From positions 1 through 64,000 of IMG/VR virus record IMGVR_UViG_3300022744_000002: a DNA stretch of 64,000 nt. The stretch is one strand, 5' to 3'. This document shows, piece after piece, positions 2,510 through 63,558 of the stretch (positions within the stretch are counted from its first letter, which is position 1; each line of letters starts with the position of its first letter). The notes under the pieces were generated by a model that saw nothing but the letters and a program-made list of their open reading frames with translations, searched no databases and was not told the origin of the DNA. The position numbers and the translations under genes are program-made. The DNA comes from a virus.

Positions 2510-4686
2510 GCCTTCAGCCCGAGGAGATCCTGCGCGACCCGTCCGAGGCCTTCCTCCACCAGCCCGGGTTCCTCGAGGGTGCGCCGGCGCCCATCGAGCA
2601 GCCGGTGGAGCAGCACCCGGACTTCGCCAAGATCGCCGTGGGGATCGCTGCCGCGCTGGTGATCCTGCGGCTGGTGATGAAGCACGAGCTGGGCAAGACC
2701 GATGCTCAGACCCCCGAGGAGATCCAGGCGGCCGCCCATCGGATCTACCGCAGGATCTTCCCCGCGTGGCTGCAGGCGTCTGTGCCGGCCATCACCCAGG
2801 CCTACCGGCTGGGGTCCACCCACTCGGTGTCCTACGCCGAGCTGGAGAAGATGGCGACGGACTACGCGACCGAGCTGGGCGACTTCGTCAACGACTCCTC
2901 CATCCTCGCCCTGACCGACGCCTTTAACGCGCAGGTCAACGCGGGCTGGTCCGAGCGGCTGGCATGGCAGCGCGCGCGTGAGGCCTACGGGCTGGACAGC
3001 GTCCAGATGCGCTCCTACGTCAAGGGCCTCATGGCGCAGGACAAAGAGGGCTACACCACCGACCCGGTGCCTGCTGCGGCCCGCTCCGCGGTCGATCGCG
3101 CCTTCCTCATCCGGGCGGACCGGATCGGCACCAATGAGGCGTTCAAGGCCTCTCAGGTGGGCCGGAACATGGTCTGGATCATGCTGGCCTCGGCCGGTGA
3201 GCTTCCCCCGGGCACGATGAAGAAGTGGGTCACCGCTGAGGACGAGCGGGTGTGTGGGGTGTGTGGGCCGCTGGATCAGGTGACCATCCCCCTGCACCAG
3301 CGCTTCGAGACCCTCGGTGGGGAGAAGTTCTACGCCCCCGGTGTCCACCCCAACTGTCGGTGCGAGCTGGAGATCGTCTACCCCGACCTGGGCAACGACG
3401 TCGTCAAGGCCATGCCCGGCGACCCCTACAACCGCAACGCTGAGGGGGAGTTTGCTTCGCGGGAGGAGCGCAAGGGGGTCGCGCGAGTGAAGGGCGTGGC
3501 ACGCGAGGGCGTGGCTCGGGAGGGAGTCTCCCGCGAGGGCGTGAACCGTGAGGCCACTGGAGTTGTGCGCGAAGCTGCGGGGGGCAACCGCTCGGCGGGC
3601 GTGAACCGGTCGGTCGCCGGGGTCAACCGGGCCACCGATGTCGCCGGGGTCAACCGCGAGACGTGGCAGCAGGCGGACGCGCTCATGGCCCAGCAGCGGG
3701 AGTTGCTGGCCGAGTCGGAGAAGAAGCTGGCCTCCACCCGCTCACGCGCGCTGTCCCAGCGGGAGAACGCGACCTTCACCCGAGAGTTCCGTCCCGACGA
3801 TCCCCAGATGCACACCACCACGGCATTCATGCCGGCCGATGGGTTCATCAAGGCCATGAGGCTGAACCGCAAGGCCGTCCTCACCCGCGGCACTCCCATC
3901 ACTATTGGCACCCAGGACGAGCACGGCTTCCATGGGGTGCAGGCCTTTCATCAGTCACCCGACACCGAGGCCGATCTGGAGACCAGCCCGGCCTTTGCCT
4001 CGGCCTTCGCCTCCTACTTGGACACCTTGGGCAGCGACATCATCGAGCGCCACAAGGTCTCACGGGAGAGCCGTCCCAAGGGCATGAGCGACTACGAGAA
4101 GTTCGGGGACAACCCCAGCCTCGCGGAGTTCGGCAACCAGCGTCGGATGCTGGCGAACCGGTCCAAGCGGGATCTGATGGTCCTGGTCTCTAACGCCAAG
4201 AGCACCTCCGAGGGCCGTGAGGCCATCCGTAACTCCCAGCTCGAGGACTACGACTGGTTGTTCGAGTCCGAGCCCAACGACCTCGCTAACGAGGTCATGT
4301 GGGCGCTGGCGTCCGAGCGGGACCTGTACGACCACGAGGCCAGCCAGGGTCGTCTTCGAGGAACGCCGTGGAACGACGAGGTTGATCGTCTGGGCGGCGA
4401 GGTGAACGACGACGACGTTGAGTTCGGGATGGCCGGGGTCGAGGGAGCACGCGAGCGGTTCGGCGTCCAGCCCATCTTCTTCGCCTTTCCCGAGTGGTAT
4501 GGCGTGCGCGAGGGCGAGCCGGACACGGACAACCCGGTGTGGGTCGAGGGCGACTACCAGGTCATGGACGTCTCACCGCCCCAGACCATCCCCGACGACC
4601 TCCTCGATGACATGGATGCGCGGGAGATCATGAACCATGCCGTCATCGTGACGCTGGGCCGAGTTCAACCACCAAGGGGTGAGTGA
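2506..4686 (+). CDS. MuF / SPP1 gp7-like head morphogenesis protein with long C-terminal extension
   Basis: WVTAEDERVCGVCGPLD and GVHPNCRCE motifs (~3226-3366) are the conserved signature of the MuF family. It lies upstream of the protease-like, scaffold and capsid genes. About 400 aa of unassigned sequence follow the core. Confidence 0.8.
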   Translation: MSLQPEEILRDPSEAFLHQPGFLEGAPAPIEQPVEQHPDFAKIAVGIAAALVILRLVMKHELGKTDAQTPEEIQAAAHRIYRRIFPAWLQASVPAITQAYRLGSTHSVSYAELEKMATDYATELGDFVNDSSILALTDAFNAQVNAGWSERLAWQRAREAYGLDSVQMRSYVKGLMAQDKEGYTTDPVPAAARSAVDRAFLIRADRIGTNEAFKASQVGRNMVWIMLASAGELPPGTMKKWVTAEDERVCGVCGPLDQVTIPLHQRFETLGGEKFYAPGVHPNCRCELEIVYPDLGNDVVKAMPGDPYNRNAEGEFASREERKGVARVKGVAREGVAREGVSREGVNREATGVVREAAGGNRSAGVNRSVAGVNRATDVAGVNRETWQQADALMAQQRELLAESEKKLASTRSRALSQRENATFTREFRPDDPQMHTTTAFMPADGFIKAMRLNRKAVLTRGTPITIGTQDEHGFHGVQAFHQSPDTEADLETSPAFASAFASYLDTLGSDIIERHKVSRESRPKGMSDYEKFGDNPSLAEFGNQRRMLANRSKRDLMVLVSNAKSTSEGREAIRNSQLEDYDWLFESEPNDLANEVMWALASERDLYDHEASQGRLRGTPWNDEVDRLGGEVNDDDVEFGMAGVEGARERFGVQPIFFAFPEWYGVREGEPDTDNPVWVEGDYQVMDVSPPQTIPDDLLDDMDAREIMNHAVIVTLGRVQPPRGE
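3475..3660 (+). repeat. Imperfect 15-nt tandem repeats inside the MuF-like gene (peptide GV[ASN]RE-like, about 12 units)
   Basis: Read directly from the sequence: GVARVKGVAREGVAREGVSREGVNRE...AGVNRSVAGVNRATDVAGVNRE. Confidence 0.8.
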
Positions 4687-4689
4687 CTG

Positions 4690-5892
4690 ATGCGCGACGA
4701 TAGGACCATGGAAACACTCGACGTCGTCGTGGCTGGACTGTTCGGCGACGCCGTCGATCCCCGCGAGCTGCGGGACGTCATCGCCAAGGCCAACGACTCC
4801 TCGGAGATGCACGTCAAGACGGCCGGGGTCGAGCCCAAGTCCGTCCAGCTCAAGCACAAGCGACAGGCTCAGGTGGGGCTGGCCTCCAACGTGCTGGGCC
4901 TGACGGCGGGCGTGGCGGCCACCGCCGCGGCTGTCCGCAACCCGGCGCTGAAGCGACCGATGATGGAGAACGCTGGTCCGGTCGTACGCCGACTGGCTCC
5001 CTACCTCAAGACCAATGCTGGCCGAGCCCGGCTGATCCGCACCGGCGCCATTGGGGCGCTGGGGCTGCAGGCGGCCAACACGGGCGGCGACGTCATCGCC
5101 AACCGGGTGCTCAACCGGGAGTCCAAGAAGGACGTGAGCAAGGCCCTGACGGACATCCTGCTCGAGCGCCAGCAGGGTCGGGTCACCACCGAGCAGGCCA
5201 TCGCTCTGGCCTCGGACATCGTGTCCAAGGTCGTCACGCCGGACTCCAAGGCCATCCACGACGCCGTGGATGCGATCGCACCGGCCATCCCGTCCAAGAA
5301 GGTCCAGCTGGGTCTGAAGGCGGCCAAGGGCATCCAGCAGGGCGCGCAGGCGGCGGCGCCGGCTGTCCAGCAGGGCGCCAAGGGCGGCAAGAAGATCCTG
5401 GGCTTCGCCAAGAAGGCAGTGGCCCAGCCCATCACCCCGAACATCCCCGACCCCGTGGCCAAGTCCGGTCCCGCCGTGACGTGGAGCGGGGAGATCTCCA
5501 AGATGGACACGGACAAACGTCAGGTGTTCGGCTTCGCCCTCGTCACGCACGTGGACGGGGAGCCGGTGATCGATCGGCAGGGGGACTACACCCCGCTCGA
5601 GGAGATCGAGAAGAGTGCGTACACCTACGTCATCGAGTCCCGCAAGGGCGGGGACATGCACCGCAGGGACGGCGAGAACCCCCTGCACACCTCTGACTTG
5701 ATCGAGTCCTTCGTCATCACCCCGGAGAAGCTCTCCAAGATGGGGCTGGCCGAGGATGCGCTCCCGCATGGCTGGTGGGTTGGCTTCAAGGTCAACGACG
5801 ACCAGCAGTGGGACGACGTCAAGACCGGTAAGCGAACGTCCTTCTCCATTCACGGCAGCGGACGGCGCGTCGAGAAGATGATGGGAGTCTGA
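4690..5892 (+). CDS. XkdF-like (putative prohead protease family) domain protein with N-terminal extension
   Basis: The C-terminal half (KRQVFGFALV...DRQGD...EKSAYTYV...GGDMH...FSIHG) resembles the XkdF phage family. It sits between the MuF-like and scaffold genes. Confidence 0.6.
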   Translation: MRDDRTMETLDVVVAGLFGDAVDPRELRDVIAKANDSSEMHVKTAGVEPKSVQLKHKRQAQVGLASNVLGLTAGVAATAAAVRNPALKRPMMENAGPVVRRLAPYLKTNAGRARLIRTGAIGALGLQAANTGGDVIANRVLNRESKKDVSKALTDILLERQQGRVTTEQAIALASDIVSKVVTPDSKAIHDAVDAIAPAIPSKKVQLGLKAAKGIQQGAQAAAPAVQQGAKGGKKILGFAKKAVAQPITPNIPDPVAKSGPAVTWSGEISKMDTDKRQVFGFALVTHVDGEPVIDRQGDYTPLEEIEKSAYTYVIESRKGGDMHRRDGENPLHTSDLIESFVITPEKLSKMGLAEDALPHGWWVGFKVNDDQQWDDVKTGKRTSFSIHGSGRRVEKMMGV

Positions 5893-59898: not shown

Positions 59899-60387
59899 AT
59901 GAGCATCGTCTGGGGGTTTGATCTTGGAGTCAGGAGCCTCTACGCCGCCCGCCTCGATGGCGGCGGACTTGACCTCTTCTCCCGCAAGCTCGTCATCCAC
60001 AAGCAGGACCGCTGGGAGGAGCTCTACGCCCTCGCCCAGTGGATCAAGTCCCTCGGAGTTGATGGCCCTAGCTTCATCGAGGAACCACCCCTCGCGGGTG
60101 CGCGGAACCTGCAGACCTTCCTACACCTGGCACAGGTATCTGGGGTGGTCAGCGCCGCAGCACGACCGTCCATTCTCGTCCCTGTCTCGAGCTGGAAGCT
60201 GGGGACGGTAGGCCGTGGCAATGCGAGCAAGGACCAGGTTGCCGACTGGCTGCGTGCTCGTCATGCCCCGTGGTACGCCCTGTGCGGAGGGGACCAGAAC
60301 TTCATCGACGCCACCTGCATCGGGATCTACGGCCTGGGTGCGAGCGGACCTAGTGCCCAGCGACCCGTGGGTGCCCACGCCCACTGA
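59899..60387 (+). CDS. ruvC: RuvC-like Holliday junction resolvase
   Basis: FDLGVRS, FIEEPP and NFIDATCIG acidic motifs in RuvC order. Confidence 0.7.
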   Translation: MSIVWGFDLGVRSLYAARLDGGGLDLFSRKLVIHKQDRWEELYALAQWIKSLGVDGPSFIEEPPLAGARNLQTFLHLAQVSGVVSAAARPSILVPVSSWKLGTVGRGNASKDQVADWLRARHAPWYALCGGDQNFIDATCIGIYGLGASGPSAQRPVGAHAH

Positions 60388-60742
60388 GGTCCGGGACTAC
60401 AAATGGGCGCTGTTCCCTGAATGGCATGCTTCCGCTCTTTGCCGCACGATCGATAAGCCCGATGAGGTGTTCTTCGGGGAGCGGGACGACTCCCACAAGA
60501 CCTCCCTCACGGTGATCCAGATCCGTGAGGTCAAGAGCTTCTGCCGGCAATGCCCGGTCTTCCAGGACTGCCTCGAGCACGCCCTGACCACACCGGAGCG
60601 TCATGGGATCTGGGCGGGGACCTCCAAGAGGACCCGGCTGCGGATCCTTGCCCTCGTAGACTTGGGGGAAGTGACCATCACCGAGGTCATCGACGACTAC
60701 CTCGCGGGGAGGGAACGCAAGTATGAGTCCATCCGCCGCTAG
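60371..60742 (+). CDS. whiB: WhiB-family transcription regulator (start uncertain: GTG 60371 or 60353)
   Basis: Cys pattern ALC ... FCRQCPVFQDC plus the GIWAGT turn motif. Confidence 0.75.
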   Translation: MPTPTEVRDYKWALFPEWHASALCRTIDKPDEVFFGERDDSHKTSLTVIQIREVKSFCRQCPVFQDCLEHALTTPERHGIWAGTSKRTRLRILALVDLGEVTITEVIDDYLAGRERKYESIRR

Positions 60743-61220
60743 CAAGTCCCGGGCCAAGGTCAAGGACATGGAGCTCGTCCTGCCCCGTGAGGATGGGATC
60801 CGGGGATCGACCATCGACGACCCGGGCTACCGGGCCTACCAGCTCCACCTGCAGGGCAAGGACTGGGAGACAGTCGCCAAGGAGACGGGGTACCAAGACG
60901 GGTACGTCGCCCAGGTGGACGTGCGGAAGTACATCCACCGTGCCGCCCTCGAGATGGACCGAGCCAACAAGCTCGAGGTCATCGGGATCGAACTGGCGCG
61001 ACTGGACGCCCTGCAGAACGCCGTGTGGGATGACGCCATGGAGGGGGACACCAAGGCCGTCGATGCCGTGCTCAAGGTAATGAGCCATCGGGCCAAGCTC
61101 CTGGGGCTCGAGGTCATCGCCGCGGGGGCAAGCGAACTGCAGCAGGCCAAGACAGTGATCATCCAAGGGAACTCCGAGGAGTACATCAAGGCGCTGACCT
61201 TGGTTGAGTCTGATGCCTAG
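60723..61220 (+). CDS. Small terminase subunit-like protein
   Basis: HTH-like GKDWETVAKETGYQDGYVAQ and LDALQNAVWDDAMEGDTKAVDAVLKVMSHRAKLLGLE resemble actinophage small terminases. No large terminase is in the window. Confidence 0.4.
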   Translation: MSPSAASKSRAKVKDMELVLPREDGIRGSTIDDPGYRAYQLHLQGKDWETVAKETGYQDGYVAQVDVRKYIHRAALEMDRANKLEVIGIELARLDALQNAVWDDAMEGDTKAVDAVLKVMSHRAKLLGLEVIAAGASELQQAKTVIIQGNSEEYIKALTLVESDA

Positions 61221-61458
61221 AGACAAGGATGATAGGCCCGTTGATAATCTGGGGTTTATCAGACTAGGGTCTGGGTGGGTGCCACTGGAATGGGTGGTGA
61301 TGATCAAGTGCCTCAACCCCCAGGGGCAGGTGCAGTACCGCGAGCTGACCTCCAAGACGCTTCATCCGGTGGAGGCCTTGGGGATGCTCACCACCATGGG
61401 GGACACGATGCGGAACAGGTTGATGCGGGATGCCCATAACTACCGGGCGGACGAGTGA
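61204..61458 (+). CDS. Hypothetical protein (84 aa)
   Basis: ORF track. Confidence 0.5.
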   Translation: MSLMPRDKDDRPVDNLGFIRLGSGWVPLEWVVMIKCLNPQGQVQYRELTSKTLHPVEALGMLTTMGDTMRNRLMRDAHNYRADE

Positions 61459-61613
61459 TCACCAAGGTCTGCGAGCACTGCGAGGCGTTGATCGCCGTCG
61501 AGGACTGGTACTTCCACCAGCAGGCCCACATTCCTCACTTCAAGCAGATGCACCTCGACTGGTGCCAGGACGCCACCTGCCATTGGCGGGACTACACCCC
61601 TAGAGAGGACTGA
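61455..61613 (+). CDS. Small Cys/His-rich protein (52 aa)
   Basis: GTGA overlap. CEHC ... H..H ... C....C.H. Below the track cutoff. Confidence 0.4.
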   Translation: MITKVCEHCEALIAVEDWYFHQQAHIPHFKQMHLDWCQDATCHWRDYTPRED

Positions 61614-61614
61614 C

Positions 61615-61824
61615 ATGCCCACGCCAGACCTGTACCACCGCTTTCAGTACCACCCGCCGTCAACAGACCTCGTGAAGACGAACCACGAGACCATCCGGGC
61701 CGAGTGCTACCGCCTTGCCCTCATCCTCGACGCCCTGCCCGATGGGCGGGAGAAGAGCCTTGCCCTGACCAAGTTGGAAGAGGCCATGTTTTTCGCGAAT
61801 GCAGCCATCGCAAGGAACCAGTAA
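61615..61824 (+). CDS. Small helical-hairpin protein resembling the Acb2/Tad1-hairpin family (candidate nucleotide sponge)
   Basis: FQYHPP...NHETIRAECYRLALILDALPDGREKSLALTKLEEAMFFANAAIARNQ matches my memory of this widespread phage family. Confidence 0.45.
   Translation: MPTPDLYHRFQYHPPSTDLVKTNHETIRAECYRLALILDALPDGREKSLALTKLEEAMFFANAAIARNQ
61795..61824 (+). repeat. Copy C: last 9 codons plus stop (ANAAIARNQ*) of gene 61615..61824
   Basis: GCGAATGCAGCCATCGCAAGGAACCAGTAA. Confidence 0.9.
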
Positions 61825-62264
61825 TGCCACTCAACCTGACCGCTGAGCAGCGGATTGCCAAGAGCATCGTCACTGACGAGACAGGATGCTGGATCTGGCA
61901 GCGGGAGATCAATCCTGCTGGGTACGGCTGCATCAGGCTCAATAAGAAGCGTTGGCTCGTCCACAGGCTGACCTACACCCTGTTCGTGGGGGAGATCCCC
62001 GAGGGGATGGACATCGACCACCTGTGTCGCGTGAGGGACTGTTGCAACCCGAGCCACCTTGAGCCTGTGGACAGGAAGACCAACCTCATGCGCGGGGAAC
62101 ACCCCAATATGCAGGCACATCGTGAGGGGCGCTGCGCTCGTGGGCATGTGGTCAATCCAGATACAGCCTCGCCTAGGAGCGATGGCAGGCTCAAGTGCAG
62201 GGAATGCACCAATGCACGCGCCCGCGAGCGTAGGGCCAACGCCGCCATTGCGAGGAACCAGTGA
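61824..62264 (+). CDS. HNH homing endonuclease
   Basis: GCWIW...GYG N-terminal motif and DIDHLCRVRDCCNPSHLEPVDRKTNLMRG HNH core. It ends with the same 9 residues as the upstream gene. Confidence 0.8.
   Translation: MPLNLTAEQRIAKSIVTDETGCWIWQREINPAGYGCIRLNKKRWLVHRLTYTLFVGEIPEGMDIDHLCRVRDCCNPSHLEPVDRKTNLMRGEHPNMQAHREGRCARGHVVNPDTASPRSDGRLKCRECTNARARERRANAAIARNQ
62235..62264 (+). repeat. Copy D: the same 9 codons plus stop at the end of the HNH gene, synonymously different
   Basis: GCCAACGCCGCCATTGCGAGGAACCAGTGA. Confidence 0.9.
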
Positions 62265-62470
62265 CGTTCTCAGAGGCACTGGAGATCATCAAGCAAGGTG
62301 GAGTGGTCACCCGTGAGGGGTGGAACGGCAAGGGCATGTGGATCGCCCTGATGACCACCGAGGTGAGTCTGGACATGGGACGCCCCTACATCTTCATGAA
62401 GACCATTGACGACCAACTAGTTCCATGGGTGGCGTCCCAGACCGACCTGCTCGCGGAGGACTGGAAATGA
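62261..62470 (+). CDS. DUF2829-like protein (Tad2-type candidate anti-Thoeris sponge)
   Basis: MTFSEALEIIKQGGVVTREGWNGKGMWI...PYIFMKT.DDQLVPWVASQTDLLAEDW is the DUF2829 pattern as I remember it. The GTG start overlaps the HNH stop. Confidence 0.6.
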   Translation: MTFSEALEIIKQGGVVTREGWNGKGMWIALMTTEVSLDMGRPYIFMKTIDDQLVPWVASQTDLLAEDWK

Positions 62471-62844
62471 TCAAGGAGACCTGCTCGTGCGGGGCAACCA
62501 TCGAGATCCAGTCCCATGGTGGCGAGCGGGAGATCGTGGAGGAGTGGCGCAAGAGCCACCAGCACATTCCCACCAAGCCCGACTTCACCTCTGATCTGCC
62601 CAGAGACTGGCGCACCGACCCCATCCAGCCCTATCGCTCAGGCATGGTGGGGACGTACGACAAGGACTTCTTCACCCTCAACGAGGACTACGTCTACAAC
62701 GGTGAGGGTGAGCCCGTGTGGATTGGTTCCCGTCTACCCCCGACGTTCTGGGAGGACTGGGCGCGGCACTGGACCAAGCCTGTGGATCGAGGGAACGGTG
62801 GACGCACCACCGCCCACATCACGATGCCCACTAGGCCTGCGTGA
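62467..62844 (+). CDS. Hypothetical protein (125 aa)
   Basis: Internal ATG at 62467 makes an ATGA overlap. Confidence 0.5.
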   Translation: MIKETCSCGATIEIQSHGGEREIVEEWRKSHQHIPTKPDFTSDLPRDWRTDPIQPYRSGMVGTYDKDFFTLNEDYVYNGEGEPVWIGSRLPPTFWEDWARHWTKPVDRGNGGRTTAHITMPTRPA

Positions 62845-62866
62845 CGCCGCTGAGAGACTGGTCCTA

Positions 62867-62900
62867 GCCGGCAGGGTGAGGTGGGCATAGCCCTGTCGGC
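62867..62900 (+). terminator. 10-bp hairpin after gene 62467..62844
   Basis: GCCGGCAGGG ... CCCTGTCGGC (one G-U pair). Confidence 0.35.
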
Positions 62901-62917
62901 CTGACTTAGGAGGACAG

Positions 62918-63175
62918 ATGCAGGACGCATTCGGAGTAGTTCACACAGTGAGCAAGGGGATCGAGACGCTCAGCAGGTACGTCCCCAAGACCACGGGGAA
63001 GTCTGCACGCCTGCTTCTGCGCAAGAATCCAGCTGGCTCTCCCCTCACAAGGACTCAGCAGAATGTGTCCGCAGCTAATGCCGACAACGCTGTCAAGGGT
63101 CTCCAGATGAAGCATTGGACCCGTTCCCAGCGCAAGGCCAACCTCCAGCAGGCGCGAGTGAGAGTCCTCGGCTGA
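62918..63175 (+). CDS. Hypothetical basic protein starting MQDAFGV
   Basis: GGAGGA RBS. The N-terminus and 13 nt (AGGACGCATTCGG) are shared with gene 5894. Confidence 0.5.
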   Translation: MQDAFGVVHTVSKGIETLSRYVPKTTGKSARLLLRKNPAGSPLTRTQQNVSAANADNAVKGLQMKHWTRSQRKANLQQARVRVLG

Positions 63176-63558
63176 TGAAGCTCTCGCTCAGGCCCCTGAA
63201 GGCGTTGGGGGAAGGTCCAGGGGCAGCCAAGACTCCTGGCGCTGTCCTGCCCGCCTTCAAGAAGCCTGCTGCGCCATACAAGGGCTTCGTCCAGTACGAC
63301 CCGGGGCTGGCTGCCCAGAGGCAGCGCGGGGCCATGAAAGCCACCTTCGGCAAGCGCCTGCGGGTCACTGACCAGCAGCTCAAGGAGGCTGCTGCCGTCA
63401 CGGGAGGCCTAGCCACCGGCACAGGACTGGCAGCGACGGCCTACGAGCTCCATGAGCACGTCAAAGTGCAGCGGAGGCATGGGAAGACCACTCTGGTCCG
63501 CAAGGGGCTCACGGATAGCCCCACGACCCGGGAAGACAGCATCAGGGCGCACCTATGA
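63175..63558 (+). CDS. Hypothetical basic Ala/Gly-rich protein (127 aa)
   Basis: Internal ATG at 63175 overlaps the previous stop (TGATG). Confidence 0.5.
   Translation: MKLSLRPLKALGEGPGAAKTPGAVLPAFKKPAAPYKGFVQYDPGLAAQRQRGAMKATFGKRLRVTDQQLKEAAAVTGGLATGTGLAATAYELHEHVKVQRRHGKTTLVRKGLTDSPTTREDSIRAHL

Follow-up and report, generated by a model that had tools for sequence, protein, structure and literature searches.

Here we report that a 64,000-nucleotide (nt) stretch of viral DNA (positions 1 to 64,000 of IMG/VR record IMGVR_UViG_3300022744_000002, hereafter the window) carries a putative counter-defence cassette in an uncultured, actinophage-like genome. Two small genes encode members of the Acb2 and Tad2 families of signalling-nucleotide sponges, and between them lies an inserted gene for a free-standing putative homing endonuclease of the HNH type. 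We put at roughly 0.65 the probability that the cassette consists of a sponge directed at cyclic-oligonucleotide-based antiphage signalling systems (CBASS) and a sponge directed at Thoeris, split by the HNH gene.

All three open reading frames (ORFs) were recovered on the + strand where the initial annotation of this DNA had placed them. The acb2-like gene (61615..61824) encodes 69 amino acids (aa) ending in FANAAIARNQ, the HNH gene (61824..62264) encodes 146 aa, and the tad2-like gene (62261..62470) encodes a minimal DUF2829 protein, again of 69 aa. The genes are tightly packed: the ATG of the HNH gene overlaps the TAA of acb2-like, and the GTG of tad2-like overlaps the TGA of the HNH gene. 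Coding on this strand is backed by the codon-position GC content of the three ORFs (GC3 0.76-0.81, GC2 0.40-0.50, in a genome of ~61% GC), a pattern missing from a 190-aa antisense ORF. Since the identical gene order is present on at least five independent metagenome contigs, the arrangement is not an assembly artefact.

The initial annotation had assigned both sponge genes to families from sequence patterns, and profile searches with the two proteins gave significant matches to those families, with PHROGs in agreement. The product of tad2-like aligns over its full length (residues 1-69, profile positions 1-71 of 73) with PF11195, Tad2-like/DUF2829 (88.6 bits, E 4e-25; curated Pfam cut-off 25 bits), and the motifs named in the initial annotation were correct; they read GWNGKGMW, PYIFMKT and LVPWVASQTDLLAEDW. 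Its best sequence match in the PDB is SPO1 Tad2 (E 3e-15), followed by HgmTad2/AcrIIA7 and ModTad2. The AlphaFold2 model (predicted local distance difference test score, pLDDT, 88), which has the Tad2 fold of an N-terminal helix and an antiparallel sheet, superposes on SPO1 Tad2 (8smf) with a template modelling (TM) score of 0.85 and an E of 1e-7, and the top 24 Foldseek matches in the PDB are all Tad2 structures, with TM scores of up to 0.88.

Residue conservation points to the ligand. All nine HgmTad2 contacts with gcADPR that we checked in the HMMER alignment (W21, N22, G23, M76, V84, W87, S90, T92 and D93) are identical in the window protein, where they fall at W21, N22, G23, M46, V54, W56, S59, T61 and D62. 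Mutation of W21/N22 or of S90/T92/D93 markedly lowers binding by HgmTad2 (10.1101/2023.11.15.567273), and residues W25 and W73 of SPO1 Tad2 (10.1101/2023.05.01.538930) correspond to W21 and W56. By homology, the Tad2-like protein would form a tetramer and bind the type I Thoeris signal 3'cADPR (1''-3' gcADPR) in a pocket made by the WNG and W-x-ASQTD motifs. The four nearest tested homologues (Tad2_71, _83, _70 and _82; 46-52% identical) all inhibit type I Thoeris, as recorded in Table S2 of a functional survey of 84 proteins (10.1101/2025.08.24.671296).

In family profile, fold and gcADPR pocket residues, the window protein is thus like the known Tad2 proteins (SPO1 gp34.65, HgmTad2/AcrIIA7 and ModTad2), from which it differs in being minimal, with 69 aa where those proteins have 89-104. 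Between beta2 and the next strand, the inserted segment is about 11 residues long, compared with 24 in SPO1 Tad2 and 41 in HgmTad2. In HgmTad2 that insertion (residues 32-72) builds the cyclic-dinucleotide pocket, a feature confined to the HgmTad2/SptTad2 subtype; because it is cut to about 11 residues here, an HgmTad2-type pocket of this kind is absent, and the protein has no equivalents of R31, S47, F70 and N85.

The product of acb2-like matches PF24729 (Acb2_Tad1_hairpin; 74.7 bits, E 6.6e-21, cut-off 27 bits) over residues 12-67, spanning profile positions 2-58 of 58, and phrog_1454 (E 6e-25). Its AlphaFold2 model (pLDDT 90.8) is a helical hairpin with helices at residues 18-38 and 45-67. 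The top three Foldseek matches in the PDB are all T4 Vs.4/Acb2 with bound cGAMP (7uq2; probability 0.97, TM 0.68), and Tad1 comes next. The initial annotation had left the choice between Acb2 and Tad1 open, and it can now be narrowed to an Acb2-type protein. Tad1 proteins (CbTad1 and relatives) share the C-terminal hairpin, but they are about 120-140 aa long and carry an N-terminal beta-sheet domain, whereas the window protein is half that length and lacks this domain, and is for that reason not of the Tad1 type. A Tad1 assignment was accordingly rejected; the protein is a hairpin only, and the profile aligns just to CbTad1 residues 45-108 (E 6e-4).

With Acb2 of PaMx33, T4 Vs.4 and the tested homologues, the window protein has in common the PF24729 hairpin, the fold of two long helices and the motif TKLEEAM(F/W)xAN. 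In a MAFFT alignment with the PaMx33-type protein Acb2_26, Y12 and R28 fall in the columns of Y11 and K26, a correspondence drawn from the alignment only, so that an aromatic and a basic residue are retained at both positions. In PaMx33 Acb2, Y11 (by stacking) and K26 (by a salt bridge) are essential for cGAMP binding (PMC10312549). Among 34 aligned homologues of the window protein, R28 is invariant and position 12 is always Y, F, W or H; the other invariant residues of the subfamily are R9, F10, H13, H24, G44-R45-E46-K47, N62 and R67. The differences from PaMx33 Acb2 lie in length (69 aa against 94 aa) and in the lack of a C-terminal segment that includes P90, and no mapping of the cA3-pocket residues was obtained; a PDB sequence search with the subfamily profile does not reach Acb2 of PaMx33 or of T4.

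Full-length alignments were obtained with the tested homologues Acb2_35 (an actinophage-type protein, 53% identical), Acb2_4 (52%) and Acb2_44 (56%); overall, the window protein is 50-56% identical to tested CBASS inhibitors, Acb2_35 included. Acb2_35, _4 and _44 all block the E. albertii CBASS that signals through 3'3'-cGAMP, none of them blocks Thoeris, and Acb2_44 also acts on the cUA CBASS (10.1101/2025.08.24.671296). We therefore regard a sponge for CBASS cyclic dinucleotides as the likeliest function of the Acb2-like protein. The hairpin would oligomerise by homology, Acb2 proteins being interlocked hexamers with three cyclic-dinucleotide pockets, and would sequester CBASS cyclic dinucleotides, most likely signals of the 3'3'-cGAMP type, with Y12 and R28 playing the parts of Y11 and K26.

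Several observations weigh against this assignment. The Foldseek E value of the hairpin is 0.4, which is not significant, so that the fold carries little weight by itself, as expected at 69 aa. Arg replaces K26. Specificity varies between close homologues in both the Acb2 and the Tad2 families, and the close tested homologue Acb2_38 (50% identical) inhibited none of seven systems (both 10.1101/2025.08.24.671296). Lastly, the best PDB match by sequence, and the only clear one, is 9PTQ, the structure of Acb2_43 (E 1.5e-7 with the single sequence, 4.5e-11 with the profile), a protein that binds 3'cADPR and inhibits Thoeris and not CBASS; 9PTQ is missing among the Foldseek matches of the hairpin.

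The main rival to the CBASS assignment is built on this last match: the Acb2-like protein could be a Thoeris (3'cADPR) sponge like Acb2_43, which would make the locus doubly anti-Thoeris. Acb2_43 is the closest solved structure by sequence, it shares the segment LP(D/E)GREKS...TKLEEAMFFA, and the study that covers it counts ten Acb2 homologues as inhibitors of type I Thoeris. The likeness is, however, restricted to the C-terminal helix (22 of 30 identities), and the 3'cADPR pocket is not preserved. Residues T4, H5, L6 and V7 of beta1, K19 and K55 are replaced by Y12, H13, P14, P15, R28 and A63, which leaves only the His and a basic residue; Acb2_43 has Thr where the window protein keeps an aromatic residue. 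Since Acb2_35, _4 and _44, whose alignments span the whole protein, act against CBASS and leave Thoeris uninhibited, we consider a second Thoeris sponge rather improbable.

The subfamily to which the Acb2-like protein belongs is widespread. A search returned 326 matches at E ≤ 0.001, and those with an organism name are all from Actinobacteria, labelled either 'Acb2/Tad1 domain-containing' or 'DUF7681', a name on which our literature search found nothing. Among sequenced phages the subfamily occurs in 313 records, 190 of them Mycobacterium phages, and the sampled matches are nearly all annotated as hypothetical.

That the two genes form a candidate counter-defence pair, as initially proposed, is upheld by the family profiles, and the likely targets can be specified further from the tested homologues. 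The closest tested relatives of the Acb2-like protein act against CBASS and leave Thoeris uninhibited, so the two genes probably complement each other by addressing separate signalling defences, CBASS for the Acb2-like protein and Thoeris for the Tad2-like one.

The pairing itself recurs. A Tad2-like gene lies within 3 kb at 7 of 80 IMG/VR loci that bear the Acb2-like subfamily, and at 6 of those 7, representing five distinct lineages, it is the immediate neighbour. Both gene orders are found, Tad2-like lying downstream of Acb2-like in contig L007 and upstream in L013, L016/L050, L017 and L058. Most of these adjacent pairs share stop/start overlaps, and the proteins are just 50-72% identical between lineages. 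The arrangement extends to a cultured phage: in Mycobacterium phage MalagasyRose (NC_073465.1, 707-1509), a Tad2-like protein, gp4, is encoded directly ahead of gp5, a 195-aa protein with an Acb2_Tad1_hairpin (E 2.4e-22) and a long C-terminal extension, and both are annotated as hypothetical. Tad2-like genes occur in only 232 of 50,697 sequenced phage records, few of them from actinophages; repeated immediate adjacency is therefore far above random placement, although this is a rough estimate and not a formal test. Phage Curiosium also has a Tad2-like gene (gp4, 774-992), and no Acb2-like gene was seen among the neighbouring ORFs scanned.

Either protein, or both, might serve primarily in something other than anti-defence, a view to which we give little credence. 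Actinobacteria use both c-di-AMP and c-di-GMP, and sequestration of these messengers could reprogramme the host; an unrelated role is a further variant. PaMx33 Acb2 binds c-di-AMP (PMC10312549), HgmTad2 binds c-di-GMP with pM affinity (10.1101/2023.11.15.567273), a phage WhiB regulator gene lies a few genes upstream of the cassette, and Acb2_38 is without anti-defence activity. Against this, the 41-aa insertion that builds the c-di-GMP pocket of HgmTad2 is the very element reduced to about 11 residues here, the residues conserved in the Tad2-like protein are those of the gcADPR pocket, and most tested members of both families that have the canonical motifs inhibit a defence system.

The gene between the two putative CBASS and Thoeris sponges encodes a protein that matches PF13392 (HNH_3; 51.5 bits, E 7.7e-14, cut-off 24.8 bits) and phrog_826 (E 1e-43). 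A close relative of the window phage, represented by contig L006/L007 (WhiB, a helix-turn-helix (HTH) protein, orf81 and orf52 are 96-99% identical), lacks it: in L006 the acb2-like gene (83% identical) overlaps tad2-like by 4 nt (GTGA) at the junction GCCAACGCTGCGATAGCGAGGAACCAGTGA, with no HNH gene between them. Because the sponge genes of L006 abut, the HNH gene is an insertion, and the proposal that the two genes were originally adjacent is borne out. The comparison of window and L006 DNA thus reveals a presence/absence polymorphism of the HNH gene at the acb2/tad2 junction, with flanks about 97% identical.

A direct repeat surrounds the inserted ORF. The two copies, on the + strand, are 28 nt long and 82% identical, and their spacing of 440 nt is exactly the length of the ORF. 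The upstream copy (61795..61822) forms the present 3' end of acb2-like and the downstream copy (62235..62262) the last codons of the HNH ORF. Both encode ANAAIARNQ and a stop; the upstream copy differs at synonymous positions, while the downstream copy resembles the native 3' end of acb2-like in L006, which has no homing endonuclease gene (HEG) there. The last nine codons of the HNH ORF are thus a duplicated acb2-like tail. Chance in-frame read-through was considered as the origin of this tail and rejected, since four further homologues (54-69% identical) retain it.

The upstream copy gives the HNH gene an AGGA Shine-Dalgarno-like motif, and the downstream copy retains such a motif together with the GTGA stop/start overlap for tad2-like. 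In our reading, the HNH gene and tad2-like would therefore stay translationally coupled by way of the repeat. The history that best fits these features may be sketched as follows: acb2-like and tad2-like originally abutted, joined by a stop/start overlap; an HNH homing endonuclease gene would then have entered acb2-like about 28 nt short of its end, duplicating the acb2-like tail, so that acb2-like would retain an intact, synonymously recoded C-terminus; and the endonuclease ORF would exit through the old tail, whose Shine-Dalgarno-like motif and GTGA overlap would still serve tad2-like.

In its HNH_3 domain and intergenic insertion, the gene is like known free-standing HNH homing endonucleases of phages (the T4 mob/seg genes and actinophage HNH_3 proteins). 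It is also like them in its presence/absence polymorphism between close relatives, its association with a conserved target sequence, and its divergent flanking sequence, which is consistent with co-conversion. What sets it apart is a putative target at the conserved 3' terminus of an anti-defence gene, and an ORF that ends with the duplicated last nine codons of that target, preserving the coupling of the next gene.

The target association became apparent from the relatives of the endonuclease. Five of the eight closest aligned HNH homologues (54-90% identical) have the C-terminus RRANAA[IV]AR. Contigs were fetched for six relatives that are 51-69% identical, the window making a seventh locus. 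An Acb2-like gene with the same stop/start junction lies directly upstream in five of the six (L087/L088, L089, L091, L092 and L093), and thus at six of the seven loci with the window included. What follows the HEG varies among these loci, with acb2-like always preceding it; in the DNA fetched, no Tad2-like gene was found downstream at any of the five relatives or elsewhere at the six loci other than the window. As a control, 80 more distant HNH relatives from IMG/VR, mostly ≤45% identical, were searched for an Acb2-like gene within 1.5 kb; none had one, and none had such a tail.

The initial annotation had placed the endonuclease exactly between the sponge genes and suggested that it could promote their co-transfer. 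Its position stands, but a tie to the pair does not, since close relatives follow acb2-like whatever lies downstream; the endonuclease belongs with acb2-like. These data support an HNH lineage that would target one gene, at the 3' end of acb2-like, and not the sponge pair. Specificity for the acb2/tad2 junction was accordingly rejected as an explanation, as homologues sit behind acb2-like genes with unrelated downstream genes. Co-transfer retains circumstantial backing from the mosaic tract described below, which starts inside acb2-like. In the literature that we searched, homing endonucleases were nowhere connected with acb2.

Codon usage in the repeat bears on the same association. Both repeat copies are present at four HEG-bearing loci, and at each of them the upstream copy writes Ala-Arg as GCA-AGG; among 60 HEG-less acb2-like alleles, by comparison, GCA occurs in 7 and AGG in 17. 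This suggests that the recoded acb2-like tail may travel with the endonuclease gene, to which shared descent may contribute. A separate observation comes from contig L090 (1343-1792), where an HNH homologue (69% identical) has an RRANAAVAR tail with no Acb2-like gene upstream and is followed by a ParB-like ORF; this is either an ectopic insertion of the element or a loss of acb2-like.

That the HNH gene is no active mobile element at all, but an ancient passenger handed down vertically, or else a nuclease that has been domesticated, with the repeat as a relic, seems improbable to us: although HEG-bearing contigs share synteny (WhiB is upstream in L087 and L090), so that the association may partly reflect common descent, and although the GC content of the gene equals that of its surroundings with no compositional anomaly, such a history fits poorly with presence/absence between phages whose flanking DNA is about 97% identical, with variable downstream genes behind a constant acb2-like, with a tailed HEG lacking acb2-like in L090, and with a mosaic breakpoint inside acb2-like.

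Returning to a mobile endonuclease, we tentatively propose an HNH sub-lineage specialised on the conserved 3' end of acb2-like (WANAAIAR) and bearing a copy of the last nine target codons as its own C-terminus, though we hold this somewhat less likely than its converse. Homing and co-conversion by such an element would drive the exchange of acb2-like and of neighbours such as tad2-like among actinophages.

The DNA around the cassette is mosaic. Between window and L006, mismatches amount to 2.6% over 60768-61643 and to 24% from 61644 to the end of acb2-like, placing the boundary 29 nt into that gene. The resulting hypervariable island (61644..63175 on the + strand, matched to L006 4030-5894) takes in most of acb2-like, the HNH gene, tad2-like and the ORFs 62467-62844 and 62918-63175. 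Protein identity with L006 is 96-99% upstream, falls to 83% for Acb2-like, 55% for Tad2-like, and 42% and 49% for the next two small ORFs, and rises again from 63175 to 91/88%.

Within L006 itself, a different HNH gene (4617-5085; 33-36% identical to that of the window) is inserted at the 5' terminus of the gene homologous to ORF 62467-62844. The original gene start, ATGATCAAGGAGAC, seems to have been left upstream, with a new start (ATGATTTCCGAAAAATGCTCC...) after the HNH gene, which looks like a further HEG insertion duplicating a gene end. Given the unlike HNH insertions and the mosaic tract, the sponge genes sit in a recombination-prone, HEG-rich accessory island. Its mosaic structure is compatible with endonuclease-driven co-conversion, without proving it.

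The Tad2-like proteins of the window and of L006 (4207-4440) are only ~52-55% identical, although the phages are otherwise near-identical, and they differ beside the WNG motif (GWNGKGMW versus GWNGAHQW). Allele replacement may account for this divergence, as may diversifying selection on ligand specificity.

The remaining ORFs of the region are largely without family assignment. Small ORFs at 61204-61458, 61455-61613 and 62467-62844 had no match in Pfam or PHROGs, and 62918-63175 and 63175-63558 gave nothing above the Pfam cut-offs. The ORF at 61455-61613 and one in L006 (4437-4619) both contain a C-x2-C-x11/12-H-x3-H pattern (CEHCEALIAVEDWYFHQQAH; CQDCDESGIGREEMFVHAQGH) reminiscent of a C2H2 zinc finger; Pfam, PHROGs and NCBIfam gave no match for the window ORF, and Pfam none for the L006 ORF. 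ORF 62467-62844 (MIKETCSCGATIEIQSHGG...) has homologues in L006 and L087. By position, the zinc-finger-like ORFs and the family of ORF 62467-62844 are possible further counter-defence candidates.

Upstream, a 165-aa ORF (60723-61220) matches phrog_645, labelled 'RNase E', and the only cultured-phage DNA that it matches, Gordonia phage Jace gene 1, bears the annotation 'RNase E' or 'helix-turn-helix DNA binding protein'; we regard the 'RNase E' label as doubtful. A RuvC-like resolvase gene (59899-60387) overlaps the WhiB-family gene (end 60742) by tens of nt just upstream of the cassette, and the WhiB start is ambiguous between 60215 (GTG, in the ORF list) and 60353 (in gene calls on matching contigs).

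Among the other products of the window are a major head protein and a portal-like protein, together with a DnaB-like helicase and a polymerase of the DnaE-like type, in addition to WhiB and the RuvC-like resolvase; this polymerase shares ~36% identity with its counterparts in Brevibacterium and Gordonia phages. A near-identity DNA search of INPHARED phages found no match to the window, and the sole match in a more distant DNA search of cultured phages was 141 nt of Jace gene 1. As these searches gave at most that match, the window phage has no close cultured relative. A tRNA search found none, a promoter and terminator scan did no better than on shuffled sequence, and NCBIfam had no match for any of the eight proteins searched.

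Both sponge proteins are new members of known families, of which thousands of homologues, including actinophage ones, are already catalogued, with 4,204 for Acb2 and 2,783 for Tad2 in Table S1 of the functional survey (10.1101/2025.08.24.671296); the most original element of the locus is the putative acb2-specific homing endonuclease lineage with its duplicated target tail. In actinobacterial phages and prophages, a cultured mycobacteriophage among them, genes of the two sponge families repeatedly sit side by side with translational coupling, whichever comes first, and their adjacency offers a practical 'guilt by association' handle for the discovery of other counter-defence genes in these small-gene islands. 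The minimal 69-aa versions of both folds are also attractive for structural and biochemical work. If the proposed specialisation of the endonuclease is true, the tail copy, with its Shine-Dalgarno-like motif and overlap, would let the element insert without polar effects on the next gene and could act as a portable downstream homology arm, and homing with co-conversion would explain why the mosaic island starts inside acb2-like. An endonuclease lineage riding on an anti-defence gene would then tie the mobility of a selfish element to the spread of counter-defence alleles.

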